64,000 nucleotides of DNA from an uncultured Bacilli bacterium. GTDB lineage: Bacteria; Bacillota_I; Bacilli_A; RF39; UBA660. The translations under genes and the position numbers were made by a program. Where the stretch lies: the NCBI GenBank assembly GCA_934130375.1, contig CAKOXW010000004.1:25421-89420 (forward strand), read 5' to 3'. Below the pieces are notes generated by a model. It saw only the letters and a list, made by a program, of their open reading frames with translations. It was not told the origin of the DNA and did no database searches. This document shows, one piece after another, positions 1-32,800 of the stretch; the stretch's first letter is position 1, and each line of letters opens with the position of its first letter.

Positions 1-1063
<1,063 letters not shown>

Positions 1064-17903: not shown

Positions 17904-19046
17904 TTAATTCGATATTTTTATTTTTTGACCAATACTTAATAAATTTGAACTTAAATTATTAATTTTCTTTAAATCAGCAACAGTAGTGTTGTACGTTCTA
18001 GCAATTGAATAAAGACTATCACCTTTTTTTACAGTATAAGTTTTAGTAACATCTGTTGAACTAGTCTTACCTGGAATTTTCAATACCATTCCAACATCTA
18101 AATTATTGCTAGTTAGATTATTAAGTCTTTTAATTGCATCTACAGTTGTATTATATGTTCTAGCAATCGCATAAAGATTGTCACCTTTTTTTACTACATA
18201 TTCATCCTCACCTATTTGTTCTTCACCAGCATAAGTTGGCAATTTCAATATTTGTCCAACATATAAAGTACCATCGGTAAGATTATTTAATCTAATTAAT
18301 TCATCCTTGTTAATATTGTTGTTTTTAGCAATACTATCAATTGTGTCACCATATTGCACTACATACGTGTTAGTAGGGCTTGGTTCCTGTTCTATTATTA
18401 TAGTATCTTTTGTTGGAATTTTTAATTCTTGGTTTATATTTAATATGTTACTAGATAAGTTATTAAGTCTTTTTATTTCAGATACAGTAGTGTTATATTT
18501 TGCTGCAATTGAATAAAGACTATCACCTTTTTTTACTACGTATGTTATGTTTGTGCCAACTGGTTCAACAAAACCAGGTATTATTAATTTCTGATTAACA
18601 CTAATTAGATTGTTCTTAAGGTTGTTTGCTGATTTTAATGCATCTACACTTACATCAAATTTTTTAGCAATTGAGTATAGACTATCTCCTCTTTTTACTA
18701 CATATATAGAACTATCTGACACCTTGTCGTATGGTACTCCTATGTAACTTGCAACAGCTCTAACCGTTGCTTCCGCTAAATTTTGCCAGTTATTTTTAAT
18801 GAAGTTAGCATCCTCCACATTATCAACAAATCCGTATTCTATAAGTACAGGTTCCGTTTTTCCGGTAAGTCTGTGGATAAAATAGTAGTCCTTGGATGGA
18901 TCAGATGGTAATCTTCTTTGATACCATTTTCTAATATTTTGCCCCTCTTTAGCAAGTTCCTCTAATATCATTTTAGCAAGAGTGTCATTATTTCTAAGTG
19001 CGTAGATTGCTTCAGCACCTTTCCCACCTGGTGACAGCTCTAGTGG
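17904..19046 (-). pseudogene. 3' fragment of an interrupted N-acetylmuramoyl-L-alanine amidase (Amidase_3) + 5x LysM gene
   Basis: The reading frame is open upstream of the track's Met up to 19046: PLELSPGGKGAEAIYALRNNDTLAKMILEELAKEG.... That is the distal half of an Amidase_3 domain. Five LysM repeats follow (Y.VKKGDSLYSIA....V..L...N.L). Confidence 0.85.
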
Positions 19047-19450
19047 TTATTAATACTTTGCTTTAAAGCTTGTAGAAATTCAATCTTTTTATCCTCTGGT
19101 ATTGATAAATTCATTTTTGAACCTACAGCCATTATACTTGGTTTTTTAAAATATTCTTTATCCATCAATTCACTTAATGCAATTTCTAAATTAATATCCT
19201 TTTTGGCATATTCCCTGATATCTTCTAAATAGTAATGATAATTATTATCTTTAAATACTTTAAATAATTCTAAATGATCAGAATTCAACGTAAATTTATT
19301 TTTTTCTAACATAGATATTTTAGTATTCATTCTTTCTATTTCTAATTGTAATTTTTCTATTTGTTCTTCTAGTACAGAAATATACTTTTCTTTATCATAC
19401 TTTTTCTTTGCATCAATAATTGTATCTTTTACTTCTGCAACAACTGACAT
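19040..19450 (-). CDS. hypothetical coiled-coil protein at the extreme end of the element
   Basis: Start MSVVAEVKD with RBS GGAGGTG. The stop codon lies about 12 nt from the att-like patch. Directly downstream of the recombinase gene. Confidence 0.55.
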   Translation of the reverse strand: MSVVAEVKDTIIDAKKKYDKEKYISVLEEQIEKLQLEIERMNTKISMLEKNKFTLNSDHLELFKVFKDNNYHYYLEDIREYAKKDINLEIALSELMDKEYFKKPSIMAVGSKMNLSIPEDKKIEFLQALKQSINNH

Positions 19451-19577
19451 ATTCTCACCTCCACTTCTAAAAAAAACGTCAGCACAAAACTCATAACAAG
19501 CCTGTACTAGCACTCTTATATAAGATATTATACTACAAATAATATTTTTTTGAAATAGATATTCTCATTTTTATCAA

Positions 19578-21239
19578 TTATGCGCTAGTCTTCCCACATC
19601 TTCCATAGGGATTTCTTATTGGATTCTTATCAATATATTTAAAAGTGTAATCATCAAGTATTTTATATTTAAATTTAATTGTTATGTTTCTGTCTTCATC
19701 TGCTTCTATTCTATCTATTAGGGTAAATAACAAGTCTCTATTTGGTTTTTCTATATTTAATAATTCTTTTATCTTTTTTGTATAATTTGGTATTTTATTA
19801 GCACTATTTTTTCTCTTTAAATTTTCAAGTTCTATTTCTTCTAATTTATCTTTTAAGTTTCTCATTTTTTGTTCATAAGGAGATACTATCATTTTGTATG
19901 ATTCTAAAGAAATATTACCATCAATTCTATCTTGATAAACTATTTGAATATTAGAAGATAATTTTAAAAAATCTTTTTCTATATCTTTCTTTATTTCATC
20001 AAGTGATTTAGTACCCGAATTAGTTCTATTAATTATTTCATCATTTAATTCTTTAATACTTAATCCTTTAAATAAATTAGATAATAATTTGTTTAATTCT
20101 TCTAATACTTCTTCTTCGAAATAATCATATGGAAAGAAATGAGCTTTACATCTTCCTCTAATTGGGTCTCTAGCATATCTATTACAATTAATAGTCCAAT
20201 AATCATGATTTTTTCTATAAGTTACTCCTAATCTATTTCCACATTCTTTGCAATAGATTAATCCTTCGAGTAATCTAATTGGTCTTTCTGTTTTTTTAGT
20301 AACAGTTCTATTATGATTATCCCTTTTTTTATTTATTATTCTAAATGTCTCTTTATCTACTAATGGTTCATGAGTACTTTCTACTATTACCCATAAGCTT
20401 TGATCTAGTGTTACTTTCTTTTTAGATTTATAACTAATATTAGTTTGAGTATGTTGTACCATATCACCAGTATACATTCTATTTTGTAATAGTTTTTTAA
20501 CTGAATGTATTGTCCATATATCTTTTTCTTTTACTCTTGAAGATATTGGTAAATTCTTATAAGCACTTGGTGTTGGTGCTCCTAATTTAGTAAGACGAGT
20601 TGCTATTTCAGATATTCCTATATCATTTGCTCTCCATTCAAACATTTGCTTAACATAAGGTGCCGTATTAGGGTCTACAATTAGATGTCCTTTATCTTCA
20701 GGGTCTCTCATATAACCATAACATGGTTTACTACCTATAAATTTACCATCTTTTCTTTTGGCATCCAATACATTTCTTATTTTTAATGAGTTTTGTTTAC
20801 TATAATAATCATTGCAAGCAATAATGAATGTTGATGAATCATTACTTGCTTGATTTTTCATACTATCATAGTTTTCAACAATTGATATAAATCTTACTTT
20901 ATTTTCAGGAAAATAAGTTTCAATATAATATCCAGTCATTACATGATCTCTACCTAGTCTTGATAAATCTTTTACTACTACAAGATTAATTTTTTTATTC
21001 TTTATATCTTCAATCATTCTAATAAATCCTGGTCTATCAAAATTTGTTCCCGAATAACCATCATCTACATACTCATCTATTAGATTAAATCCATTTTTTA
21101 AACAATAGTCTCTTAATATTTCTTTTTGATTAGTAACACTTTCACTATCTGACTCATATTTTTTATCTTTATCTTCTTGAGAAAGTCTAATATAAATACC
21201 TGCATTATAATTCATATTTGTTAAGTAACTATAATCCAT
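19578..21239 (-). CDS. large serine recombinase
   Basis: 553 aa. N-terminal resolvase domain (AGIYIRLSQEDKD, VVVKDLSRLGRD), a recombinase domain, a zinc-ribbon (CKECGNRL...C..YARDPIRGRC) and a coiled-coil C-terminus. Confidence 0.9.
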   Translation of the reverse strand: MDYSYLTNMNYNAGIYIRLSQEDKDKKYESDSESVTNQKEILRDYCLKNGFNLIDEYVDDGYSGTNFDRPGFIRMIEDIKNKKINLVVVKDLSRLGRDHVMTGYYIETYFPENKVRFISIVENYDSMKNQASNDSSTFIIACNDYYSKQNSLKIRNVLDAKRKDGKFIGSKPCYGYMRDPEDKGHLIVDPNTAPYVKQMFEWRANDIGISEIATRLTKLGAPTPSAYKNLPISSRVKEKDIWTIHSVKKLLQNRMYTGDMVQHTQTNISYKSKKKVTLDQSLWVIVESTHEPLVDKETFRIINKKRDNHNRTVTKKTERPIRLLEGLIYCKECGNRLGVTYRKNHDYWTINCNRYARDPIRGRCKAHFFPYDYFEEEVLEELNKLLSNLFKGLSIKELNDEIINRTNSGTKSLDEIKKDIEKDFLKLSSNIQIVYQDRIDGNISLESYKMIVSPYEQKMRNLKDKLEEIELENLKRKNSANKIPNYTKKIKELLNIEKPNRDLLFTLIDRIEADEDRNITIKFKYKILDDYTFKYIDKNPIRNPYGRCGKTSA

Positions 21240-21432
21240 CTTCTACCTCCTCATTTTATAGCACTTAACTTTCTTCGAGACAAGTGCATCTTACCATGAT
21301 AAATAAAAATAAGCAAATCATTAGAATTATTTTTCTTCCATAATTTGCTTTAATAAATAATTTAATATTAATTTTTTAAAAATTTCCTTTTTATCTTCTT
21401 TCATACTTAAATTTATGTCTACCATAAAAGGA

Positions 21433-21874
21433 TTATTCACTAGAATCACCATCCTTAAATGGTTTAAGTAATTTTTCTAGTTCAGCTAATTCTTCTTCTG
21501 TTAATGGAACTGATTCACATCTTTTACCATTCCAAGTTTCTACTCCATCATAATCAACACCAATAACTGGACCATCAGCACTAATAAAATCATAATTTTC
21601 TCTTTTGGTTACTGTTACATAAATTGTGTATTGTTTCATTCTTATCAGAATAAGAATTTAAATATCCTTTTAAATATACATTTTTACCCAATAAAAAAAG
21701 ATCTTTATTATTTTCATAAAGATCTTTATAAACTCTTAAACTAGCATAAACTATATTACCATTTTCATTAGTTGAATACTTCTTACAAGTTAGTCCTAAT
21801 GTAATATATCTATTATTAATTATAATATTATTTACCTCACCAGATAATAATATTTCGTTATAAATCATAAACAA
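21433..21874 (-). CDS. OB-fold / SSB-like protein encoded in two overlapping frames (possible frameshift or pseudogene)
   Basis: Track ORFs 21590..21874 and 21433..21639 overlap by 50 nt in frames offset by +1. Read through, ...VYLKGYLNSYSDKNE|KQYTIYVTVTKRENYDFI resembles the last strands of bacterial SSB OB-folds (VEGRLQTRSYE...KRYVTEVVA.N..F). Confidence 0.4.
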
Positions 21875-21980
21875 AACCTCCTGTTTAATTATATATATAA
21901 TTTTTTATATATTAATTATCTTTTAATTTATTTATTATACATGCATATCTATTCATATAATTAATGCACAATACTGCATA

Positions 21981-22379
21981 CTAACCTGAATCATCTTGCA
22001 TATCATTCACATATATTCTTCTTTGAATTAAGACATCATTTTTAATTCTTTCAACATTAATATATCCTTTTTCTTTTAATCTCTTTAAAGAATAATTAAT
22101 TGTTCTTATTTTAACAAAAGATAAATTAGATAATACTTTATTAGTAGCAAAACAATAACCATTTAATCTACTAAGATTATAAATATTACCAAATAAAAAA
22201 CAGTCTGATTTAGTCAAACTGTTATCTTCCATTAATTCTCTTGGAATAATAATAAAATCTTTTTTCAAATACTTTTTTCTCCTTTCTCTAAAATCCCAAA
22301 AACACCAATTTTTAATTGGTATTTTTCTATCAGGATAAGACGATGGTACCGTAACACTAATTTTACTAAGTAAAATCAA
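21981..22379 (-). CDS. winged-helix DNA-binding protein (replication-organizer / HTH_36-like)
   Basis: FIIIPRELMEDNSLTKSDCFLFGNIYNL...INYSLKRLKEKGYINV pattern. The true start is probably TTG at 22268, preceded by AAAGGAGA. Confidence 0.5.
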   Translation of the reverse strand: MILLSKISVTVPSSYPDRKIPIKNWCFWDFRERRKKYLKKDFIIIPRELMEDNSLTKSDCFLFGNIYNLSRLNGYCFATNKVLSNLSFVKIRTINYSLKRLKEKGYINVERIKNDVLIQRRIYVNDMQDDSG

Positions 22380-22546
22380 TGTTTCTTATGGTACCAAACT
22401 TATTTTGCACTTGCAAAATTTATCCCATATAGATAGATTATCTTTGATAAGACATTTAAATATAGGCAAATAAAAAATCCCAATGTAGAAAACATTGAGA
22501 TTTTAATGGGACATTAACAAAAAGTAATACCAACTTTTATTTAAAC

Positions 22547-22652
22547 TATTTACCTACTATAGCAAATATATCAGAAATATTTTTATTATGCAAGTTTCAT
22601 TTTCTTTCCGTTTTTTTCCTTTTTTTGTCATATTATTTACCTATTATAGCAA
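22547..22652. repeat. pair of 19-nt direct repeats in a ~450 bp non-coding stretch
   Basis: TATTTACCTACTATAGCAA (22547-22565) and TATTTACCTATTATAGCAA (22634-22652): one mismatch, 87-bp spacing. Confidence 0.7.
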
Positions 22653-22831
22653 CTTTAACACAGAATTTTTTATTTGTCCATTCGTTTTAAAAGCCATTTT
22701 AACCAATATTTATAACTACATCTATACTTCACTTATGACTTATTTTGCCCTTTAATACTAAGCAATTGTATTAATCAAAAAAATGCAAAAATTTGTACCC
22801 TTTTTGAAAAATCACTAAATTTTTTTAAAAT

Positions 22832-23212
22832 TTATTTAATATCAATATTCCATAATCCTAATTTACCATTAATTACTTTGTCAGATTCTATCTCCTTAAC
22901 ATTCTTCAATTTCCATGCATAACCGCTTCTAAATTTTGAACCATATGCAATATTTTTTTCGTTGATAATTTGTTTATTCAATTCATCATCCAATTCTAAA
23001 CAATCTTCTATTTCAACTTCTGCAACTATTCTTTTGGATGGATATTTTAAATTTAAGTCTTTAAATCTATTCATTTTCTTTTTATCTACACCAGCACCAG
23101 CATGTATTAATATTTTACCCCTATAATTAGTTTTCCATGATCTGAATTCGTATTTTTTTATTTCTTCAGCCACTAAAGTTGCCCATGGTTGTTTCAATGT
23201 TAATACCTTCAT
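22832..23212 (-). CDS. ASCH (PUA-like) domain protein
   Basis: MKVLTLKQPWATLVAEEIKKYEFRSW matches the typical ASCH N-terminal block. ~126 aa. Confidence 0.65.
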   Translation of the reverse strand: MKVLTLKQPWATLVAEEIKKYEFRSWKTNYRGKILIHAGAGVDKKKMNRFKDLNLKYPSKRIVAEVEIEDCLELDDELNKQIINEKNIAYGSKFRSGYAWKLKNVKEIESDKVINGKLGLWNIDIK

Positions 23213-23301
23213 ATTTATCACCAATACTATTTTATCACAATTATTAACCTAATTATTAAGAATTTTTGTTTAATATGTTATAATATATATGGAGGTATAG
23301 T

Positions 23302-24297
23302 ATGGTATTAGATAAAGTAATGTTTGATAAATTACATTCATTTTCAGAAAACATTTGTCAAAATTTTAATATAAAAGAACCAAAAGATAGAAAGTCTCTT
23401 ATTAAGTATCTTGATTCATTACAAAAAGGTATTGATATTGGAGAAATAAACTCTTCATTTATTGGATTAATATTATATGATTTTGTTTCATCAGAAGAAA
23501 CTCGTGATAGACATACAACTGCAAGAATATTTGAAGATATCTTTGGAGAATTAGTTGGTGAAAAAGCTACAGACACTTCATCAAGAGTTAATCCTCAAGT
23601 CCCGGATTATATTAAAGAATATGATAGTTTATGTAATAATGTAGATTGGACGATTAGTCATGATTTAGCAGGTAATAAAAGGGAAAAGGCTGATCACAAA
23701 ATTGATGAATATGAATTATCTATAAAAACATTAAAAGGTAAATTATATAATAAGGATGGCAAAATCATTAATAGTGACTTTAATGATGAAATCAATATAG
23801 GTTCATTATCACATAGAGCCTTATTTATAGGACTAACTGATAAAGCACTTAGTGATAGAAAAGGCGGTTTAGGTTCTCCAAGACAAACAATACCATTGCT
23901 TGAATCAATAAAAGAAAATGATAAATTTGATGAATTTAAAAGCAGAATAAACAATTATGTTAAATATGTATATAGTGATGACATTTTAATCGTTTATAAA
24001 TGTGGATATAAAATGAAAATAACTTTAATACCTGCAGAATCATTCGTTACCGCAATAACAAAAGCTCTTGATGACGAAAATGGTGGAATAAATTCATTTA
24101 CAAAAATTTGGTACAGATGGGAAAATAATAATTTAAGAATAAGATATACAGCATTAATGGACATGATAAGAAAGTTAAATTTAAATTATTATGACACTAT
24201 ATTAAATTTAGAAAATGTATTTGAAAACAAAGAATTTATAGATAATATGATTATCTTAGAAAAACTAATAGATCAAAAAATAGAAGATTTAATTTAA
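23302..24297 (+). CDS. putative type II restriction endonuclease (partner of the adjacent C5-MTase)
   Basis: 331-aa ORF convergent with the methyltransferase gene and overlapping it by 9 nt. No family recognised, so the assignment rests on context only. Confidence 0.5.
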   Translation: MVLDKVMFDKLHSFSENICQNFNIKEPKDRKSLIKYLDSLQKGIDIGEINSSFIGLILYDFVSSEETRDRHTTARIFEDIFGELVGEKATDTSSRVNPQVPDYIKEYDSLCNNVDWTISHDLAGNKREKADHKIDEYELSIKTLKGKLYNKDGKIINSDFNDEINIGSLSHRALFIGLTDKALSDRKGGLGSPRQTIPLLESIKENDKFDEFKSRINNYVKYVYSDDILIVYKCGYKMKITLIPAESFVTAITKALDDENGGINSFTKIWYRWENNNLRIRYTALMDMIRKLNLNYYDTILNLENVFENKEFIDNMIILEKLIDQKIEDLI

Positions 24298-25422
24298 AAA
24301 ATCTTCTATTTTTATTGGAAAAATTTTAGCTATATTATATGCCATTAATACTGGAACAGCATTTCCTATCTGTCTATAACATGCAGAGGTACTTCCTAAA
24401 AACAAAAATGTATCTGGAAAAGATTGGATTCTTGCAACTTCTCTAACACTCATTCTTCTGTTATATTCAGGATGTGGAATAATTAAAGGTCCTCCAGTTC
24501 CACTACCTCTTCCCATAATAGTTGGAGAATGTTTATCCCAATATGTCGGTCTATTTCCAACCATATGTGATTTTTTTTGATTTAATTTACATCTAGACGA
24601 AGTATGATTTAATATTTCACAACCATCAACATTGGTTTCTTCAGGTAATCCATAAATTGTATCTCTTAATGTTTGATATTGATATTTAATATTTGAATCA
24701 AAATAATCATTAATATTTATCTTTTTCTTATTACACAACTTATTAAACATATCTGTAACAACTAAGTATGTATTTTGAGGTTGTTTAATGTTACTATTCT
24801 TTGAATGAGTTTCTTTTACTAATAATCTCTTTTTAACTTTTTTTAAATCAACTGTTTTTTCCATGATAGGCATTTTAATTTTTTGAGCATAGTCATTTCT
24901 TACTCCAAAGATTATTACTCTTTCACGATTTTGTGGAACTCCATAATTCAATGCATTTAACACATTATAATAAACAGTATATCCTTCGCCAATAGATTCA
25001 ATATCTTTGATAATCATTTCTAAGATTTTTCCTTTTTCCATATTTTCTAATCCTTTAACATTTTCTAGTAATATAAATTTAGGATTTTTAATTTTAATCA
25101 TTTTTAAAACTTGCAAATACAAGAAATTTCTTTCATCTTCCATACTTCTATTTATATTAGCTATCGAAAAACCTTGACAAGGGAATCCACCTATAACTAT
25201 ATCAGCATCTGGTATTTCTTTTTTCAATTTTTCTTCATCTTGATTTAAATACTCTAATATATCTCCTCTAACAACCTTGTGTTTATTAAATCTATTAAAA
25301 TTTTCTTCATATGTATCAACTGCATAATCATCAAAATCATTTGCCCACACGATTTTGTGACCAGCTAAAGAAAATCCTAAGTCTAAACCACCAGCGCCAG
25401 AAAACATTGATATTACTTTCAT
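24289..25422 (-). CDS. DNA (cytosine-5)-methyltransferase
   Basis: Motif I FSGAGGLDLG, motif IV GGFPCQGFS, motif VI ENVKGL, motif VIII QNRERV, motif X GNAVP. Confidence 0.92.
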   Translation of the reverse strand: MKVISMFSGAGGLDLGFSLAGHKIVWANDFDDYAVDTYEENFNRFNKHKVVRGDILEYLNQDEEKLKKEIPDADIVIGGFPCQGFSIANINRSMEDERNFLYLQVLKMIKIKNPKFILLENVKGLENMEKGKILEMIIKDIESIGEGYTVYYNVLNALNYGVPQNRERVIIFGVRNDYAQKIKMPIMEKTVDLKKVKKRLLVKETHSKNSNIKQPQNTYLVVTDMFNKLCNKKKININDYFDSNIKYQYQTLRDTIYGLPEETNVDGCEILNHTSSRCKLNQKKSHMVGNRPTYWDKHSPTIMGRGSGTGGPLIIPHPEYNRRMSVREVARIQSFPDTFLFLGSTSACYRQIGNAVPVLMAYNIAKIFPIKIEDFLN

Positions 25423-25453
25423 TATTTATCACTCCTAACTGATTGTTGCCTAA

Positions 25454-27676
25454 TTATTTTAAATCTATTTCTTCTTCAGCTTTATTATATAACTCAATTT
25501 TATTATTAACATCAACTTTTGTAACAAGCCATTTTCTTAGAGAACACATTCTTACAAAATCATCAATTCTATTTATCCCATTGATTTCTTTTAATGTAAT
25601 TACAATTCCAAACTTTATTCCTTCACCATCTCTTTTTTCTAATCGCTCTTTAGTCTTAATGCTTATTCCCCATAATTCATTTGAATATTTCTTTTTAGGT
25701 CTGGAACCATCTTTTAATATTTCCATTATATGTTTTACATTATCCCATTTTCTATAATTTTTTCGTGCATTTCCTTCATACATATAGTGACCTTCTTCGG
25801 TTTGATAGTTATTGTTTATTGTTTTTATATGACCTTTATCATCAATTCTACCAAATGATAAATCCAGCTCAGTATTAGTATAATCTACACCTTGATTTCT
25901 TGAACAATTTGGAAAATAACATAATGTTGCTTTAGAGATAAATGGATATTTATCATTATGTAATGGAACAGGAATATCATATGTATATGTATCATATTTT
26001 TCAGAAATTCCTTCAATAACAAATTTAATTTCATCATCTTTTGAATTAATAATATCTTCTATTCTCTTTGGAACGACACCATACCCTAATAACGGTGCCT
26101 GTTTTTGATTAATAATTTCTTTCCAATTTGTGGCAGAATCAATTATTAATGCTTTGGCAACTTCTCTACTTAAGCCTAAAATATCAATCAAATATGACAT
26201 TTTTCTTGAAATCCATGGAGCAGCAAATGATGTTCCTGCTAATAGGCATTCTCCACAAGAGTTACAAGCCTTAATATAATCGTTTTTGTCTCCACCATAA
26301 TAGCAAATATCAGGTTTATTAAAAAAAGACAATACTAATCCTTTTCTAGAATATGAAGCTGATATTCCTTTTGAATCAACTGAATTAACAACCAATGCGT
26401 TTATCGAATCTGCAGGAGCGCCAATCATCTCAACACTTTCTTTTTGCTTATTAGTCCCTGCAATTACAAATATAACATTATTTTCATATTGAATTTTATC
26501 TAAAATTGCTGCTTCAGGTGATATAAAGTTTGGATTGATTTCTAGTGCCGAACCAAGTGATAAATTCCATACTCTAATATCCTTATTGGTTTTTACTATT
26601 TCTTTTATGTGTCTTAATATCGCAAACGAACTCATTTGCTTAGAAAGTGCAACACCAAAATGTCTAACTTTAAATCTACCGCATCCATCATCTAGTTCAG
26701 GATTAATATTTGGTCCATCTACTATAATTGATGATACTGCTGTACCATGATCCATATCCTCTGAGGATGTTTCTATATCATCTGAAATCATTTTATGATA
26801 CTTAACCCAATTAGAAAAATAGCATCTAGTATCAAATAATGTATCAATTACTCCAATTGTTGGTTCATTAGTTGGATTTGGTAATTTAGGTAATGTATCA
26901 TCATCTAATGTAATAAAATCATCTTTTGATAGTTCTGAGATATCGCTTAAAGTCATGGCAATTAGATATGGTGCCTTCATTTTTAATAATTCCAATTGGT
27001 CTGGTGTTAATAATACCGTAGAATCTTCCTCAATAATTCTTTGAGTCAAAATATCTATACCCAATTTATCCATAATTTCTTTTATATTATCATCAGTCTT
27101 ATATAAAGTAACTAATGCATTGTCACTAATAATATCACTATTATCTGGCAAGTCAAACTTTTCTACATAATATGCATCCACAATTATTTGATTGAAAGCT
27201 GATTTAGAAAGTCCAATGCTTGTCAAATATTTAGATAATGCATCTATATTATCTAATTTTTTTTGTGAAACTACACCAGACATTTTTTCATTTACACACC
27301 TAATAACTAAATCCAATTTACTAATAGATGTATTTAATGAATCCAAATGTATATAATGTGTAATAATATGTTTTGGAATTTTTTTATCAGTAAATTTTGC
27401 ACCTACTATTGTGTTATTTGTAACCTTACCAGATTCATGAAGAATTGCAGATATTCGATTACTCTTTGCAATTACATCGATATAATACACACTAATTAGT
27501 GCACCTTTAACAACATTTTGTGTACTCCAAAAACTATATAATTTTTTTAATTGAGATAATAAAGTTTCCAAATGCTCGACTATCACAATTGAACTACCTG
27601 GAAGTGTAGCAGGTCCCGGAGTTGAATTATTAGATCTTTGATGAAATTGTCCTTTTAATTGCAATAAATTATTCAT
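25454..27676 (-). CDS. S8 (subtilisin-like) serine peptidase with ~270-aa unknown N-terminal region; IetS-like
   Basis: Catalytic triad blocks IGVIDT (Asp), DHGTAVSS (His) and GTSFAAPWIS (Ser). The start lies 3 nt after the stop of the upstream AAA+ gene. Confidence 0.8.
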   Translation of the reverse strand: MNNLLQLKGQFHQRSNNSTPGPATLPGSSIVIVEHLETLLSQLKKLYSFWSTQNVVKGALISVYYIDVIAKSNRISAILHESGKVTNNTIVGAKFTDKKIPKHIITHYIHLDSLNTSISKLDLVIRCVNEKMSGVVSQKKLDNIDALSKYLTSIGLSKSAFNQIIVDAYYVEKFDLPDNSDIISDNALVTLYKTDDNIKEIMDKLGIDILTQRIIEEDSTVLLTPDQLELLKMKAPYLIAMTLSDISELSKDDFITLDDDTLPKLPNPTNEPTIGVIDTLFDTRCYFSNWVKYHKMISDDIETSSEDMDHGTAVSSIIVDGPNINPELDDGCGRFKVRHFGVALSKQMSSFAILRHIKEIVKTNKDIRVWNLSLGSALEINPNFISPEAAILDKIQYENNVIFVIAGTNKQKESVEMIGAPADSINALVVNSVDSKGISASYSRKGLVLSFFNKPDICYYGGDKNDYIKACNSCGECLLAGTSFAAPWISRKMSYLIDILGLSREVAKALIIDSATNWKEIINQKQAPLLGYGVVPKRIEDIINSKDDEIKFVIEGISEKYDTYTYDIPVPLHNDKYPFISKATLCYFPNCSRNQGVDYTNTELDLSFGRIDDKGHIKTINNNYQTEEGHYMYEGNARKNYRKWDNVKHIMEILKDGSRPKKKYSNELWGISIKTKERLEKRDGEGIKFGIVITLKEINGINRIDDFVRMCSLRKWLVTKVDVNNKIELYNKAEEEIDLK

Positions 27677-27679
27677 ATT

Positions 27680-28714
27680 CTAATCTCTCCATTCTCTAGA
27701 AACCTGACTTTTAGAAATCCCAGTAATTATTTCAATTTCTCTAACAGTGAATCCTAGTTTTTGTAAATCTTTTAATTGCATTTTTTTATCTTTATTTATT
27801 TTCTTATATAATGTTTTTAAATAATCTAATTCACAATCAGGATTACTAAAAGCAATAGATGTTTTAATTAAATTTCTCAAATCTCCAGGATATGGAATTG
27901 GTTCCATTAAATTAATTATCTTCTTAAATAGTTTTATATTTCTTCCAGCATTTTTAAATTTTAAAAGCATTTCATTTAAGATATATTCTGAAACTTCCAA
28001 TAAATCTTCCCTTGAATAATTGTTAAAATTAATTATAGAATCAAATCTTCTTATTAATGCCTTATCAAATGAAGAAAATAAATTAGTTGTAGCAATAAAT
28101 AGAATATTATCATTTAATTGATCTAATTCTTTTAAAATCGTTGAAGTTGCTCTTCCCATTTCTCTAATATCATTATCATTCATTCTGTCTAATGCTATAG
28201 CATCTATTTCATCAAAAAGTATTATCACCTTTTCAGGATGAGGCATCTTTTTTATTTCGTAGAATAACTCCGTAATATTCTTAGCAGTTTGTCCTAATTT
28301 GCTATCAACAACCATGCTAAAATCAACAGAAAAAATATCCCTTTCAAGTATCCTTGATAATTGCCTTACAGTCTCTGTCTTGCCAGTGCCTGGAGCACCT
28401 TCAAATAAAAATTTATTTACCCCTACATTGTGTTTAACAGCATGAATTAATCCGATAATATCATCTTTTATACTTTCAGGTAATGGAAATGGTTCTTTAC
28501 TTGGAGATAGTTTTTTAAAAAAAACCAAGTCAGATTTTTCAATTTGAGGTACAAATGTATTTACATCAGATAGAAGTGCAAGTATATATTCTGATAATTC
28601 AACATCACCAGTTTTATCAAAGTATTTTGCAATTTCATATGCTTCATTTCTAAAATATTCATCATTGTTTTCTGTATGATATTTAATTAAATTTAATATA
28701 TTCTTCTTCTTCAT
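27680..28714 (-). CDS. AAA+ ATPase with C-terminal HTH-like tail; IetA-like
   Basis: Walker A GAPGTGKT, Walker B VIILFDEIDA, sensor-like ATTN. The C-terminus GFTVREIEIITGISKSQVSREW looks like a helix-turn-helix. Start at M7 with RBS GGTGA. Confidence 0.8.
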   Translation of the reverse strand: MKKKNILNLIKYHTENNDEYFRNEAYEIAKYFDKTGDVELSEYILALLSDVNTFVPQIEKSDLVFFKKLSPSKEPFPLPESIKDDIIGLIHAVKHNVGVNKFLFEGAPGTGKTETVRQLSRILERDIFSVDFSMVVDSKLGQTAKNITELFYEIKKMPHPEKVIILFDEIDAIALDRMNDNDIREMGRATSTILKELDQLNDNILFIATTNLFSSFDKALIRRFDSIINFNNYSREDLLEVSEYILNEMLLKFKNAGRNIKLFKKIINLMEPIPYPGDLRNLIKTSIAFSNPDCELDYLKTLYKKINKDKKMQLKDLQKLGFTVREIEIITGISKSQVSREWRD

Positions 28715-28730
28715 ATTATCACCTATATTC

Positions 28731-28770
28731 ATTATATATCATTTGGGACACTTTTGCAATATTCGGGACA
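28731..28770 (-). promoter_or_regulatory. sigma-A-type promoter of the AAA+/S8 operon flanked by direct TGTCCC repeats
   Basis: Minus strand: TGTCCC gaata TTGCAA aag TGTCCC aaatgata TATAAT. -35 TTGCAA (28754-28759), 17-nt spacer, -10 TATAAT (28731-28736). GGGACA on the plus strand at 28745-28750 and 28765-28770. Confidence 0.5.
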
Positions 28771-28842
28771 TATTTTTTATTTTTAGTAAGATGTAAAGTA
28801 AATAAAAAGACAACTTATTTTTTATAAATTGTCTTTAAAATC

Positions 28843-29163
28843 TTAGTTTTTCTCGAAGAAAGTTAATTTACCACAAGAGCCTTCACCACCCCCTGCATTC
28901 AAGTGATTAGATAATACAATTACGTCACTATTATTGCCATATGCATTAAGAATACTTTTCACCCTATCATTAGGATTTATAGTAACATCACTTGTTCTTG
29001 TAATACTAACAGGCACACCTAATTCCTTTAATCTATCATAAATATAATTTGCTATTCTTAAATTATATTCCTTCTCAATAACACCATTGCCAGATGCACC
29101 GGGATCAACTCCTCCGTGCCCTGCATCTACAACCACTTTCTTCGTTGTTCTATCATCATTCAT
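28843..29163 (-). pseudogene. 5' fragment of the interrupted Amidase_3-LysM gene
   Basis: MNDDRTTKKVVVDAGHGGVDPGASGNG...VLSNHLNAGGGEG is the proximal half of an Amidase_3 domain. After GGGEG the frame continues into element DNA (SCGKLTFFEKN*) and stops. Confidence 0.85.
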
Positions 29164-29261
29164 ATTATCACCTATTTTATAATATGACTTTTACCCAAAA
29201 TGGTCACTATATAATGCGTCTAATACCAAAAATTGATAATTTTTTTTACCAATTATCAATT

Positions 29262-30428
29262 TTAATATTCAATAAATCGTTCCCATGTCTCTATCGTACT
29301 GCTTGATACACAGTCAAAATACTTTTCCAATTGATTGCTTATTACCTTGGCCTTTTCATTAATTGGATTTCCTTTAGTATAATAATCTTTTTTTAAGGTT
29401 CTAAATATCATATCAGAAAATAATACTGCTCTATCTTCTTTATAATCGCTTTTGCTATAAGCCGATAAGAAATACGCGGGATTTGAATAATAATATACAT
29501 ACTCGTTTGTTTGATTGCCATATGTAAATCCTTCGGGATTAAGCTCATTCATGCTTGCCTCAATCGCTTCTGCACCTATTTTATCTGCTAAATAGCAATC
29601 AATATAATGCATTATTTCATGATGAAGAGTGCTCTCAAACAAATATCCTTCAGTACTAATTAATATCACAACAGTATTAGAATCTTTATTATCAGTTAAA
29701 CCTGCTACCGAAGGGCCAACTTTTTCAACCAAATAAATAGTTAAATTTTTCCATTTGTTTTTTATTTCATTGAAAAAGGAACTTGGATACTTTTTTAATT
29801 CAGTATCAATAGAAATAAGAATTTTATTGATTTTTTCATCATTATATTGCCTTACTGGTTCAAAGTATGCATTTTTATAAATATTATCCATCTCATCCTT
29901 ATAACCAACTAAAACACCATACTTACTTTTTATCTCATTTCTATACTCATTATTTATCACATCAAGGGTTTTAACTCCACTTTCATTTTCTTCTTTAATT
30001 ACATCATCACTATCACCAGTTTCATTCTTTTTATCTTCTTGATTATTTTTATCATCACTACTACTTACATTATCTTTTTTAGGTTCCTCTGGTTTTACTT
30101 CTGAATTTTCTACCTTGTTTGTGTTTGACGGTTTATTATCTTTTTTTACATTTTCTTTCTTATCATCAGTTTTAATGTTTTCTTCTTTTTCTACAACTTT
30201 ATCATCAAGGGTTTTATCATCATCTTGTTTTTCTTCTTCATTCAAGGTTTTCTTTTCATCATTTTTACCATTATCATTTATCCCTTTTTCAACTGCGTCA
30301 ATCACATTATCTACTTTCCCAACGTTATTTTTCTTGGTATTTGCATACTTACTATCAAATAATACAATAAAAGAAATCATAACTATTACAATAAATAAAA
30401 TTAAATACTTTTTCAAATTCTTTTTCAT
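29262..30428 (-). CDS. membrane-anchored/secreted putative zinc metalloprotease (HExxH)
   Basis: Start MKKNLKKYLILFIV (RBS AAGAGGT), one TM segment, a K/D/E-rich linker, then a domain containing TLHHEIMHYID. Confidence 0.55.
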   Translation of the reverse strand: MKKNLKKYLILFIVIVMISFIVLFDSKYANTKKNNVGKVDNVIDAVEKGINDNGKNDEKKTLNEEEKQDDDKTLDDKVVEKEENIKTDDKKENVKKDNKPSNTNKVENSEVKPEEPKKDNVSSSDDKNNQEDKKNETGDSDDVIKEENESGVKTLDVINNEYRNEIKSKYGVLVGYKDEMDNIYKNAYFEPVRQYNDEKINKILISIDTELKKYPSSFFNEIKNKWKNLTIYLVEKVGPSVAGLTDNKDSNTVVILISTEGYLFESTLHHEIMHYIDCYLADKIGAEAIEASMNELNPEGFTYGNQTNEYVYYYSNPAYFLSAYSKSDYKEDRAVLFSDMIFRTLKKDYYTKGNPINEKAKVISNQLEKYFDCVSSSTIETWERFIEY

Positions 30429-30543
30429 GATAAACCTCTTACTTAAATAAATTATATCATCTAATTTATAAATTACATTATTTGGTTTACACATATTTTA
30501 TATTTTTTATTTTTATGATATTATTATTGTCGAGGTGTTTTTT

Positions 30544-31867: not shown

Positions 31868-32800
31868 TTATAAATCAACAATATTTTTCCAATTAGTTGG
31901 AAAACCTATCTTATCTAATACTTTATCAATTTCAATAGAATTCAATTTATTACCAAGTAAATCAACTTCATATCCAAGTTCATATACAAGTAACTTAAAA
32001 TCTTCTTTTGAAAGCATAAATTTAAACATTAATACTAAAGAAAATAAGTCATTTTTGCCATATACGTATTCTTCATCAATTTTAGGAATATTTAATTTGT
32101 GATGATAGATATTATTTGGAATACTTCTTTGTGTTCTATAAGTATAAAGCATATCTTCATGAGCACACAAATTTCTATAATTAGACATTATTGGCAAGAA
32201 TACAGTCATATCAAACGCATCCATCTTATAGTACTTAGCAATTTCTTTTTGGTCTTCTGGTTTTAATATCATAAATAATTCACTTATCAATCCAAAAGAC
32301 AATACTTTTACTAATATCCACATAGGAATATATCCATAATTAGTTAAATAGTGTAGCGTCGCAGTATGCTGTTTAGCATTTGTTTTAATTTGTCTTTTCA
32401 TCTTATTAATAACATCTGCAACTTGTCTTCTTTTACTTATATCAGTTACGAAATTAGACATTTTTAAATATTCTTTTTCTTTATAACCATATTTACCTGA
32501 TAAATGATAACTAAATATTGATTTTAAGTTATTTTCAACAATTAAAAGATATTTAAACATTACATTTCTAATATTTCTATCAAAACAAAATAATGCATAA
32601 AGTTCATCAAAAGAAGAACCATCTATAAATGTATTTTCCTTTGGCCCTTTAAAAAGTAAATGTCTATAACCATTTATAAAGAAATAATTTTCTCTTAACA
32701 AAATTTCTTTTGTTTTATCATCATTAGAAATAGTTAACCCTTTATCTCTTAATATATCAATTTGTTCATCTATAGTTTTAAAACTTTTCATTCTACCCAT
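31868..32800 (-). CDS. Abi_2 (AbiD/AbiF-like) abortive-infection family protein
   Basis: FKTIDEQIDILRDKGLTISNDDKTKEILLRENYFFINGYRH is the characteristic N-terminal block of the Abi-like PF07751 family. 310 aa. Confidence 0.75.
   Translation of the reverse strand: MGRMKSFKTIDEQIDILRDKGLTISNDDKTKEILLRENYFFINGYRHLLFKGPKENTFIDGSSFDELYALFCFDRNIRNVMFKYLLIVENNLKSIFSYHLSGKYGYKEKEYLKMSNFVTDISKRRQVADVINKMKRQIKTNAKQHTATLHYLTNYGYIPMWILVKVLSFGLISELFMILKPEDQKEIAKYYKMDAFDMTVFLPIMSNYRNLCAHEDMLYTYRTQRSIPNNIYHHKLNIPKIDEEYVYGKNDLFSLVLMFKFMLSKEDFKLLVYELGYEVDLLGNKLNSIEIDKVLDKIGFPTNWKNIVDL

Follow-up and report, generated by a model that had tools for sequence, protein, structure and literature searches.

Sporulation gene-intervening elements are known under names such as skin, SPbeta, vfbin, gin and yin, and one more, named vrin in PMC4191935, is said to lie in spoVR. 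The window analyzed here, a 64,000-nucleotide stretch of contig CAKOXW010000004.1 from an uncultured Bacilli bacterium (G+C content, ~26%), holds a 9,862-bp island (positions 19029–28890, minus strand, one core copy counted) that cuts an Amidase_3-LysM gene on the minus strand at codon 92. We class the island with these elements, with a predicted timing of excision: a host coding sequence is interrupted, precise excision restores one open reading frame (ORF), and the island encodes its own recombinase. The documented interrupted sporulation genes are sigK, spsM, spoVFB, gerE and yabG (PMC10747680, PMC5595907, PMC4191935), and spoVK has been reported in a preprint as the integration locus of an SPbeta-like phage. 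Text searches of the literature returned no report of an amidase-LysM or cwlC-type gene as the target of an intervening element. An earlier note on this stretch, made from the letters alone, had considered both the target and a purely anti-phage cargo to be noteworthy. The former stands in the literature searched; the design itself is not new, because gin, located in gerE, is a non-phage intervening element with restriction-modification cargo (PMC5595907). What is new here is the target gene, the host lineage, the scale (~70 species, several subfamilies of large serine recombinase (LSR), tandem arrays and possibly a second site in the same gene), and a very small candidate recombination directionality factor (RDF).

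The element skin(Cd) in sigK of Clostridioides difficile is moved by the LSR CD1231 with the RDF CD1234 (PMC5025042). Like the LSR element of the window, whose target is a putative mother-cell gene, it splits a mother-cell gene, and its excision restores the ORF (in silico in the window). The layout deduced here is also the same: the LSR gene of skin(Cd) has a sigma-A promoter with inverted repeats in the leader, and a small protein made from a mother-cell sigma-factor promoter is the RDF, a role for which the window offers a candidate. The combination of a sigma-A-transcribed LSR with a small, sigma-E-dependent RDF was shown experimentally for CD1231/CD1234 (PMC5025042), and the regulation of SprA/SprB was reported to follow the same scheme (PMC5595907). 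In contrast to skin(Cd), which interrupts a sigma-factor gene, the island here interrupts an amidase gene; it bears defence genes and does not resemble a phage, and the candidate RDF has 25–37 instead of 72 residues. Moreover, the present islands are polymorphic and move between species, whereas skin is nearly fixed, and their excision is predicted. In Bacillus cereus ATCC 10987, the gin element that interrupts gerE (GirC/GirX; PMC5595907) resembles the present island in being of non-phage origin and in having an LSR and restriction-modification cargo. It occupies a mother-cell gene of the sigma-K period, which the amidase gene would also be, and its small accessory factor has a candidate counterpart here. 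However, gin is 28.6 kb long, encodes three recombinases and occurs in only a few strains of the B. cereus group, whereas the islands described below are 3–15 kb long, encode one LSR and occupy one site in ~70 species. SPbeta in spsM of Bacillus subtilis (SprA/SprB; PMC4191935, PMC5499854) can be likened to them through its constitutive LSR, an RDF induced by mother-cell sigma factors and its strain-variable presence. SPbeta is a 134-kb active phage, whereas the islands lack phage genes, and relatives of their LSR above 37% identity are nearly absent from viral contigs. Judging from the sequences and from the likeness to these systems, we assign a probability of about 55% to a sporulation-linked excision in the mother cell, brought about by a microprotein and followed by sigma-K transcription of the rebuilt amidase gene.

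The island is a non-phage element moved by a large serine recombinase and is inserted at a GG dinucleotide within the N-A-G-G-G-(K)-G-A-E codons of a chromosomal Amidase_3-LysM gene. The 5′ part of this gene (28886–29163, minus strand; codons 1 to ~93) covers positions 1–91 of the 174 positions of the Pfam Amidase_3 profile and, as aligned to Cwp6 (PDB 5J72), holds the Zn-ligand motifs DAGHGG, EKE and SNHLNA. The piece ends with ...SNHLNAGGGEG, and the called ORF (28843–29163, minus strand) continues past it into 11 element-encoded codons and a stop. The 3′ part (17904–19028, minus strand) holds the catalytic Glu motif LIEYGF; it covers profile positions 85–173, after which come five LysM repeats. 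Its open frame (17904–19046, minus strand) contains the sequence PGGKGAEAIYALRN, with the junction ...PGGKGAEAIY. The roles of these motifs are general features of the Amidase_3 fold and agree with the Cwp6 alignment. Neither half would be active alone, because the Zn-ligand motifs are located in the 5′ half and the catalytic Glu motif in the 3′ half. The N-terminus, MNDDRTTKKVVVDAGHGG, lacks a hydrophobic leader, and the protein has no signal peptide.

A GGTGG core is common to both junctions (28886–28890 and 19024–19028), with a spacing of exactly 9,862 bp. When exactly this length was deleted in silico, a 465-residue ORF resulted, with the same layout as the empty-site allele described below. 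The two proposals of the earlier note, that one Amidase_3 gene is split in frame by an LSR element and that loss of 9,862 bp restores the ORF, are thereby borne out. The deletion coordinates that it gave (19016|28891) need correction, as they would remove four codons too many. It had also left the restored junction as NAGGG-E/K-GAE; the ORF is indeed restored, and the residue is K, not E, as it is the 3′ (attR) side that supplies this codon.

When proteins were searched with the gene rejoined in silico, an empty-site orthologue was found, P0001, of 469 residues and 97% amino acid identity, which reads NAGGGKGAEAIY and has the junction NAGGGKGAE. Its contig (L001) is syntenic with the window, with genes for a cwlD-like protein, Abi_2, a CitMHS transporter, a small ORF, the amidase and a CwlJ/SleB-type hydrolase. 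The two DNAs are ~96% identical, and the alignment stops exactly at 19028 and 28882. L001 thus represents a same-species strain that has the predicted attB, CACTTGAATGCAGGG-GG-TGGGAAAGGTGCTG. An uninterrupted orthologue with the junction GGG(K)GAE, anticipated in the earlier note, is therefore present in a relative, and its empty site defines attB. A prophage endolysin was also considered as the identity of the amidase; this reading is rejected, since the gene lies in a conserved chromosomal order (rplM-rpsI...cwlD...amidase-cwlJ-like) and phage genes are lacking.

The attL site (28860–28915, minus strand) consists of the host arm CACTTGAATGCAGGG, the core at 28886–28890 and the element arm TGAAGGCTCTTGTGGTAAATTAAC, which is kept in the related loci L002, L006 and L010. 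The attR site (19000–19055, minus strand) consists of the element arm AACCACTAGAGCTGTCACCA, the core at 19024–19028 and the host arm GAAAGGTGCTGAAGC. The attP site rebuilt from the inner arms, AGAGCTGTCACCA-GG-TGGTGAAGGCTCT, is an imperfect palindrome around GG, as expected for a serine integrase site, and the predicted circular joint is AGAGCTGTCACCAGGTGGTGAAGGCTCT. Because the palindrome centres on GG, the crossover most likely occurs at the GG at 28889–28890 and 19027–19028, and sites of the L031 type narrow it to the same dinucleotide. The LSR (19578–21239, minus strand; 553 residues) has the Pfam domains Resolvase, Recombinase and Zn_ribbon_recom (PF00239, PF07508 and PF13408) and matches integrases in PHROG. 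It shows the properties of a serine integrase, namely three domains, a length over 400 residues, an attP with inverted-repeat arms around a central dinucleotide, and an attB that differs from attP. The island appears to encode a complete recombinase for its own ends. A dead insertion, in which a remnant no longer able to move has knocked out the gene of this strain for good, would be in keeping with a frameshifted backbone gene and the absence of transfer genes. We consider it very improbable in view of the full-length LSR with all its domains, the two intact att sites with palindromic attP arms, and an intact micro-ORF (described below). In addition, LSRs 94–98% identical to that of the window occur in other species, and the LSR lineage has therefore been active recently.

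Relatives of the LSR number in the thousands overall; taking one genome per species, we obtained 80 loci with LSRs 52–98% identical. The carriers are almost all gut metagenome-assembled genomes (MAGs), labelled 'uncultured Bacilli/Tenericutes bacterium', 'Mycoplasma sp. CAG:877', 'Firmicutes bacterium CAG:884' or 'Candidatus Faecimonas', and come from humans, rabbits, goats, mice and chickens. An amidase half adjoins the island at the identical residue in 67 of the 80 loci, with the split at query residues 87–95. Together with L082, which has the same junction at a contig end, and the tandem arrays L011 and L083, the total is 67–70 of the 80 species representatives, a recurrence far beyond chance. 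The remaining loci were too short to judge the site, and no family member at any other site was found among the 80. In all 20 distinct species for which both halves were available (island size, 3.2–14.7 kb), precise deletion produced one ORF of 340–572 residues with the junction SNH(I/L)N(A/S)GG(G/A)xGAE. No decayed half was found among ~65 amidase C-halves.

At least five types of element arm abut the same GG, for example CCACTAGAGCnGTCAnnA-, ACTAATGGTAAATGAACnCAnnA-, CAGTAATCnnTGGGAGnGCTAAnnTTGT-, ACACAATGACTATCnCCA- and TACATAAGGGCACTCAGGA-. In the L015–L020 subgroup, whose LSRs are ~72% identical to that of the window, the LSR gene is located at the attL end in the opposite orientation and the arm sequences are different, with the same GG at the centre. 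The LSR gene is the only gene shared by all 21 complete islands. The cargo of 20 islands is mostly related to defence and includes m5C (5-methylcytosine) and N6 methylases, ResIII and SWI2/SNF2 helicases, and MutH-like, Mrr, HNH and PLD nucleases, as well as Fic, NUDIX, nSTAND3 NTPases (nucleoside triphosphatases), AbiEii, SocA/Panacea and a Cap4-type nuclease.

Hybrid junctions were observed in L011 (near 11880) and L083 (near 12919), where the core links the right arm of one island to the left arm of a second island that belongs to a different LSR subfamily. They indicate tandem accretion of two islands at one site. Another LSR family (weak match to Pfam DUF4368 in the L006 copy; C-terminus ...EIEWNFEF before the stop) ends ~35 bp short of amidase sequence whose first codons are those of (D/P)xxHGG. 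Such loci are L006 (1–150), L015 (12917–14562), L018 (13279–13509) and L016. Their sequences suggest a second insertion site near codon 15, and the amidase of L015, L016 and L018 would then be in three pieces; the far junction was not found within the locus DNA examined, nor was exon 1 of the doubly split gene of L015. Because a second LSR family appears to strike the same gene and islands lie in tandem at the main site, the amidase gene is apparently a preferred target.

Similar islands are known as staphylococcal cassette chromosome (SCC) elements, which ccr serine recombinases insert into the end of rlmH/orfX and which are likewise small, lack transfer genes of their own, carry variable cargo, use a single site, accrete in tandem and are exchanged between species. 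SCC inserts at the 3′ end of its target and the gene stays functional, whereas the islands described here lie in the middle of the gene and disrupt its catalytic domain.

The divergence of the LSRs shows no relation to that of their hosts. Across 65 loci (2,080 pairs), LSR identity and the identity of the amidase C-half gave a Spearman rho of −0.04. LSRs at least 93% identical sit in hosts with amidases mostly 50–75% identical, and amidases at least 88% identical are often paired with LSRs of 54–72% identity. Because the two divergences are uncorrelated, the islands must move between species; a skin-like vertical history, in which island and host diverge together, is ruled out by the same value. 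L010 (2349–12815) has the gene order of the window (IetA, IetS, methylase, 331-residue ORF, ASCH and HTH_36) in a host whose amidase is ~62% identical, and a different ORF of 255 residues fills the slot after its LSR gene. In the species of L002, uninterrupted alleles of 336 residues at 97–99% identity are very common, and this abundance rules out fixation within species. The islands are accessory and polymorphic and are exchanged between species; they are active mobile elements, unlike the fixed remnant skin. As for phage-borne relatives of the LSR, only two matches in IMG/VR exceeded 37% identity, and the one examined (L088) is chromosomal, with an amidase C-half after the LSR gene. Phage and plasmid collections gave relatives of at most 35% identity, and TndX is 32% identical.

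Polymorphic presence within species, rampant horizontal exchange and a cargo typical of defence islands would all be found with an ordinary integrative defence island. Such an island would use a conserved coding stretch of a dispensable amidase as attB, the knockout would be tolerated through paralogues, and rare excision would serve transfer, unrelated to sporulation. Second amidase-LysM paralogues do occur in L006, L027, L057 and L060, no circle was detected in viral or metagenome contigs, and serine integrases often target conserved coding sequence. However, this explanation accounts neither for the sigma-K-type promoter on the target in most species nor for the micro-ORF behind a CATA-type box that is separate from the sigma-A promoter of the LSR gene. 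It also leaves unexplained the lack of a decayed gene half in ~65 species and a second LSR family that apparently strikes the same gene. We regard it as the main alternative, though a rather unlikely one.

The micro-ORF is located upstream of the LSR gene (21327–21404, minus strand) and encodes the 25-residue peptide MKEDKKEIFKKLILNYLLKQIMEEK. Homologues of 25–37 residues precede the LSR gene in 64 of 75 loci, and similar micro-ORFs of 30–39 residues were found in most of the remaining loci of 52–56% identity; in two of these, translation from the first ATG would yield no more than a short peptide. The consensus of the core reads F-(K/E)-(D/E)-L-(I/V)-(L/I)-x-(Y/F)-(L/I)-x-x-x-(I/L). Within this 13-codon core, the entropies are 0.83, 0.26 and 1.11 at codon positions 1, 2 and 3, respectively, and one peptide is encoded by many synonymous variants. 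From these values and variants, we infer that the micro-ORF is translated and under purifying selection. The conserved micro-ORF is a candidate RDF. RDFs are structurally diverse, and some of them bind the integrase by helices only (PMC12286644).

Directly upstream of the micro-ORF, the box CATAAATTTAA (21407–21417, minus strand) is a candidate −10 element for a mother-cell sigma factor of the sigma-E/K type. Among 62 distinct sequences from LSR subfamilies of 52–100% identity, CATA and the TT at positions 8–9 of this box are invariant, and the other positions are kept in 42–54. In the upstream frames that overlap the box, the C of CATA occupies the third position of D, N, V, L or S codons. 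Because it is the third base in codons for different amino acids, the constraint appears to act on the DNA, as a CATA-type −10 element would impose. The −35 region of the window reads GAATAAT-N14-CATAAATT, which resembles the B. subtilis sigma-E consensus. A ribosome-binding site follows the box in most subfamilies.

A terminator-like hairpin with a U-run (21298–21350, minus strand; −12.4 kcal/mol, z = −3.8) overlaps the end of the micro-ORF, and the LSR gene has an extended −10 promoter of the sigma-A type, TGgTAAGAT (21288–21296, minus strand). In 64 of 79 loci, the pattern TGnTAnnnT precedes the start of the LSR gene by 46–61 nt. A generic scan of the region for sigma-70 promoters and terminators gave sites at no more than chance frequency and was not used. 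In the LSR leader (21240–21287 in the window), a conserved box with GTCT in it (TTGTCTTAAT...ATTAAGTAAG, or CACTTGTCTCG...AAGTG) comes after the −10 element in nearly all subfamilies; it may be an operator or a leader element. The hairpins of the leader were not significant by shuffling.

The ORF at the other side of the LSR gene (19040–19513, minus strand; 157 residues) had been proposed in the earlier note as an accessory factor. It is ruled out as a conserved RDF or accessory factor by its lack of conservation: the variable slot between the LSR gene and attR holds unrelated ORFs or nothing in relatives, and in many of them fewer than 100 bp separate the LSR stop from attR (27–100 bp in some). 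The ORF has no family match and is regarded as cargo of unknown function.

Sigma-E and sigma-K have a CATA-type −10 element in common, and their −35 elements are ATA and AC, respectively (PMC3789822). With the sigma-K consensus of that source, 22 amidase upstream regions were anchored on the last CATA before the ribosome-binding site. A CATAnnnTA −10 box lies 23–34 nt before the ATG in 18 of the 22 amidase loci, and AC lies 16–17 nt upstream of it, completing the motif, in 14. As controls, 557 further ORFs of these loci that have a ribosome-binding site gave rates of 2.7% for the −10 box and 1.3% for the full motif, which amounts to an enrichment of ~30- to 50-fold. The sequence around the motif is not conserved. 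In the window, the motif is AC-N16-CATATTATA (29178–29204, minus strand), 23 nt before the ATG. This predicted sigma-K-type promoter suggests that the amidase gene is a mother-cell gene. Mother-cell lysis in B. subtilis is carried out by CwlC and CwlH, two amidases under sigma-K control (PMC3789822). CwlC, which belongs to the regulon of sigma-K (cited in PMC3789822), has an Amidase_3 domain, no signal peptide, C-terminal wall-binding repeats and a sigma-K-type promoter, and the amidase described here has the same features, the promoter being a predicted one. However, its wall-binding module is LysM and not the CwlC repeat domain, and a CwlC-like function is putative.

The neighbourhood also contains genes associated with spores. 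As the earlier note had pointed out, a cwlD-like gene (downstream of rplM-rpsI) and a CwlJ/SleB-type hydrolase gene (143 residues) are nearby; CotZ is encoded in L006. The position of cwlD downstream of rplM-rpsI matches the gene order of Bacillus.

In the mechanism that we favour, the LSR would be made constitutively from the extended −10 sigma-A promoter and would, alone, catalyze integration only. The microprotein of 25–37 residues, made from the CATA-type promoter of a sigma-E-like mother-cell sigma factor, would act as the directionality factor and would confine the attL × attR recombination to the mother cell, with release of the island as a circle. The rebuilt amidase gene would then be read from its sigma-K-type promoter, and the enzyme, which lacks a signal peptide, would, like CwlC, act at a late stage on the peptidoglycan of the mother cell or the spore. 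The forespore chromosome would retain the island, which makes the gene a safe parking site at low cost to the host. The probable reason for islands at the same codon across ~70 species is that no cell but the dying mother cell needs the gene, and there excision can rebuild it.

The vegetative type of the LSR promoter and the anti-phage cargo would also fit a reversible switch in the style of active lysogeny, in which stress or phage triggers excision and an autolysin is turned on in a subpopulation. The yin element of Clostridium botulinum is in fact excised at all growth phases (PMC10747680). However, the amidase promoter is of the mother-cell type and not of the sigma-A type, excision in dividing cells would lose an island in which no complete replication module was found, and no SOS-type or repressor module is conserved across the complete islands. 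We consider a vegetative switch improbable.

Several points weigh against mother-cell excision. Excision and its developmental timing are both predictions. So is sporulation of the host, whose lineage is uncultured: the related uncultured Bacilli orders RF39, RFN20 and ML615J-28 are predicted to form spores in part (PMC10868615). The −35-like ATA upstream of the micro-ORF differs in position by two bases between subgroups; because it sits two bases closer in another subgroup, sigma-E and sigma-K cannot be told apart confidently for this box. The micro-ORF of the window's subgroup has no ribosome-binding site after the CATA box and would therefore need leaderless translation. The proposed RDF is also smaller than the documented small RDFs, which have 53 residues (predicted in yin; PMC10747680) and 72 residues (CD1234; PMC5025042). 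In the window alone, the sigma-K pattern is found at chance frequency (6 found, 4.75 expected), and the sigma-K argument is therefore comparative only. The frameshift in the ~145-residue backbone gene represents some decay of the island. Because islands are polymorphic within species and move between species, as seen in the abundant intact alleles of the L002 species and in the rho value, the intact gene halves could reflect recent insertion and not selection for reconstitution. Finally, the attP joint, searched as a degenerate 41-nt pattern, is absent from viral and metagenome contig collections, a result that is uninformative given that circles are rare and that the pattern represents one LSR subfamily.

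If mother-cell excision is correct, sporulation-linked rearrangement would extend to a late amidase and to an uncultured, clinically ubiquitous gut lineage, and the restored junction would serve as a DNA-level sporulation marker for scoring in metagenomes. Mother-cell-only genes would then be exploited by defence islands as well as by prophage remnants. The stretch from attL to the backbone genes would be a defined hotspot, and its unknown ORFs (331 and 157 residues here) would be candidates for new defence genes. The family would also provide a natural panel of diverged LSR/attP pairs on one attB core with a possibly minimal, testable RDF, which is of interest for genome engineering. More tentatively, at least five LSR subfamilies with one attB might represent a radiation of miniature, exchanged defence islands on one dinucleotide of a mother-cell-only gene, with excision controlled by a microprotein of 25–37 residues from a mother-cell promoter. 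Such a radiation, which seems possible to us, would be the first functional hint that these uncultured gut Bacilli with reduced genomes sporulate. If excision is not developmental, the site is still a well-defined and very widespread integration hotspot.

The cargo of the window's island begins at the attL side with IetA, an AAA ATPase (27680–28732, minus strand; PADLOC IetA, 1e-35; Pfam AAA), and IetS, an S8 subtilase (25454–27676, minus strand; PADLOC IetS, 2e-63; Pfam Peptidase_S8), which are adjacent on the same strand and constitute an IetAS defence system. They are followed by a C-5 cytosine DNA methyltransferase of the m5C type (24289–25422, minus strand; Pfam DNA_methylase, 4e-83; PADLOC MTase_II). 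The convergent ORF of 331 residues (23302–24297, plus strand) has no match in Pfam, PADLOC or PHROG and is, from its position alone, a candidate restriction endonuclease. A type II restriction-modification system is putative here, with a clear methylase and a neighbouring ORF with no detectable family. An ASCH-domain protein (22832–23224, minus strand; Pfam ASCH) completes this part. Among the island proteins, no phage structural, packaging or lysis gene was found, and the PHROG matches are limited to integrase, replication-initiator-like and unknown-function families. The earlier description of the cargo as anti-phage agrees with the IetAS system and the m5C methylase. Searches with Pfam and PHROG found no conjugation or transfer genes in the island.

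The island backbone further comprises a small HTH_36 protein (21981–22379, minus strand), whose best PHROG matches are replication-initiator families and whose relatives are found upstream of the LSR gene in 42 loci, and a ~145-residue protein of unknown function (21433–21874, minus strand). The latter gene is frameshifted into two overlapping ORFs, with the break near 21621–21623; L008 and L011 have an intact copy, L007 and L010 a truncated one. It appears to be decaying while the LSR gene and the micro-ORF remain intact. As to a complete replication module, the island offers only the HTH_36 protein with its replication-initiator-like matches and this one frameshifted backbone gene. The HTH_36 (21981–22379) and ~145-residue (21433–21639) backbone proteins of different islands (the window, L080, L015 and others) have a common C-terminal motif, DGxxxWxGKxxxxxxxTxEExxExxxLL, which may be a common interaction tail.

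Outside the island, an AbiD/Abi_2 abortive-infection gene (31868–32800) is located between the cwlD-like gene and the transporter gene. Because it has the same place in L001 and in L002–L005, it is a chromosomal defence gene outside the island. Upstream of the amidase gene, an ORF of 410 residues (29262–30494) contains a long low-complexity region rich in K, E, D and N, which the related strain lacks; compared with L001, where the called gene has 153 residues, there is an indel at 29848–30464. Toward the window start, another large serine recombinase (125–958, minus strand), unrelated to that of the island (24% identical), lies near tRNA-Gly (1465–1539) and proS and probably lies at one end of a further integrated element that continues outside the window.

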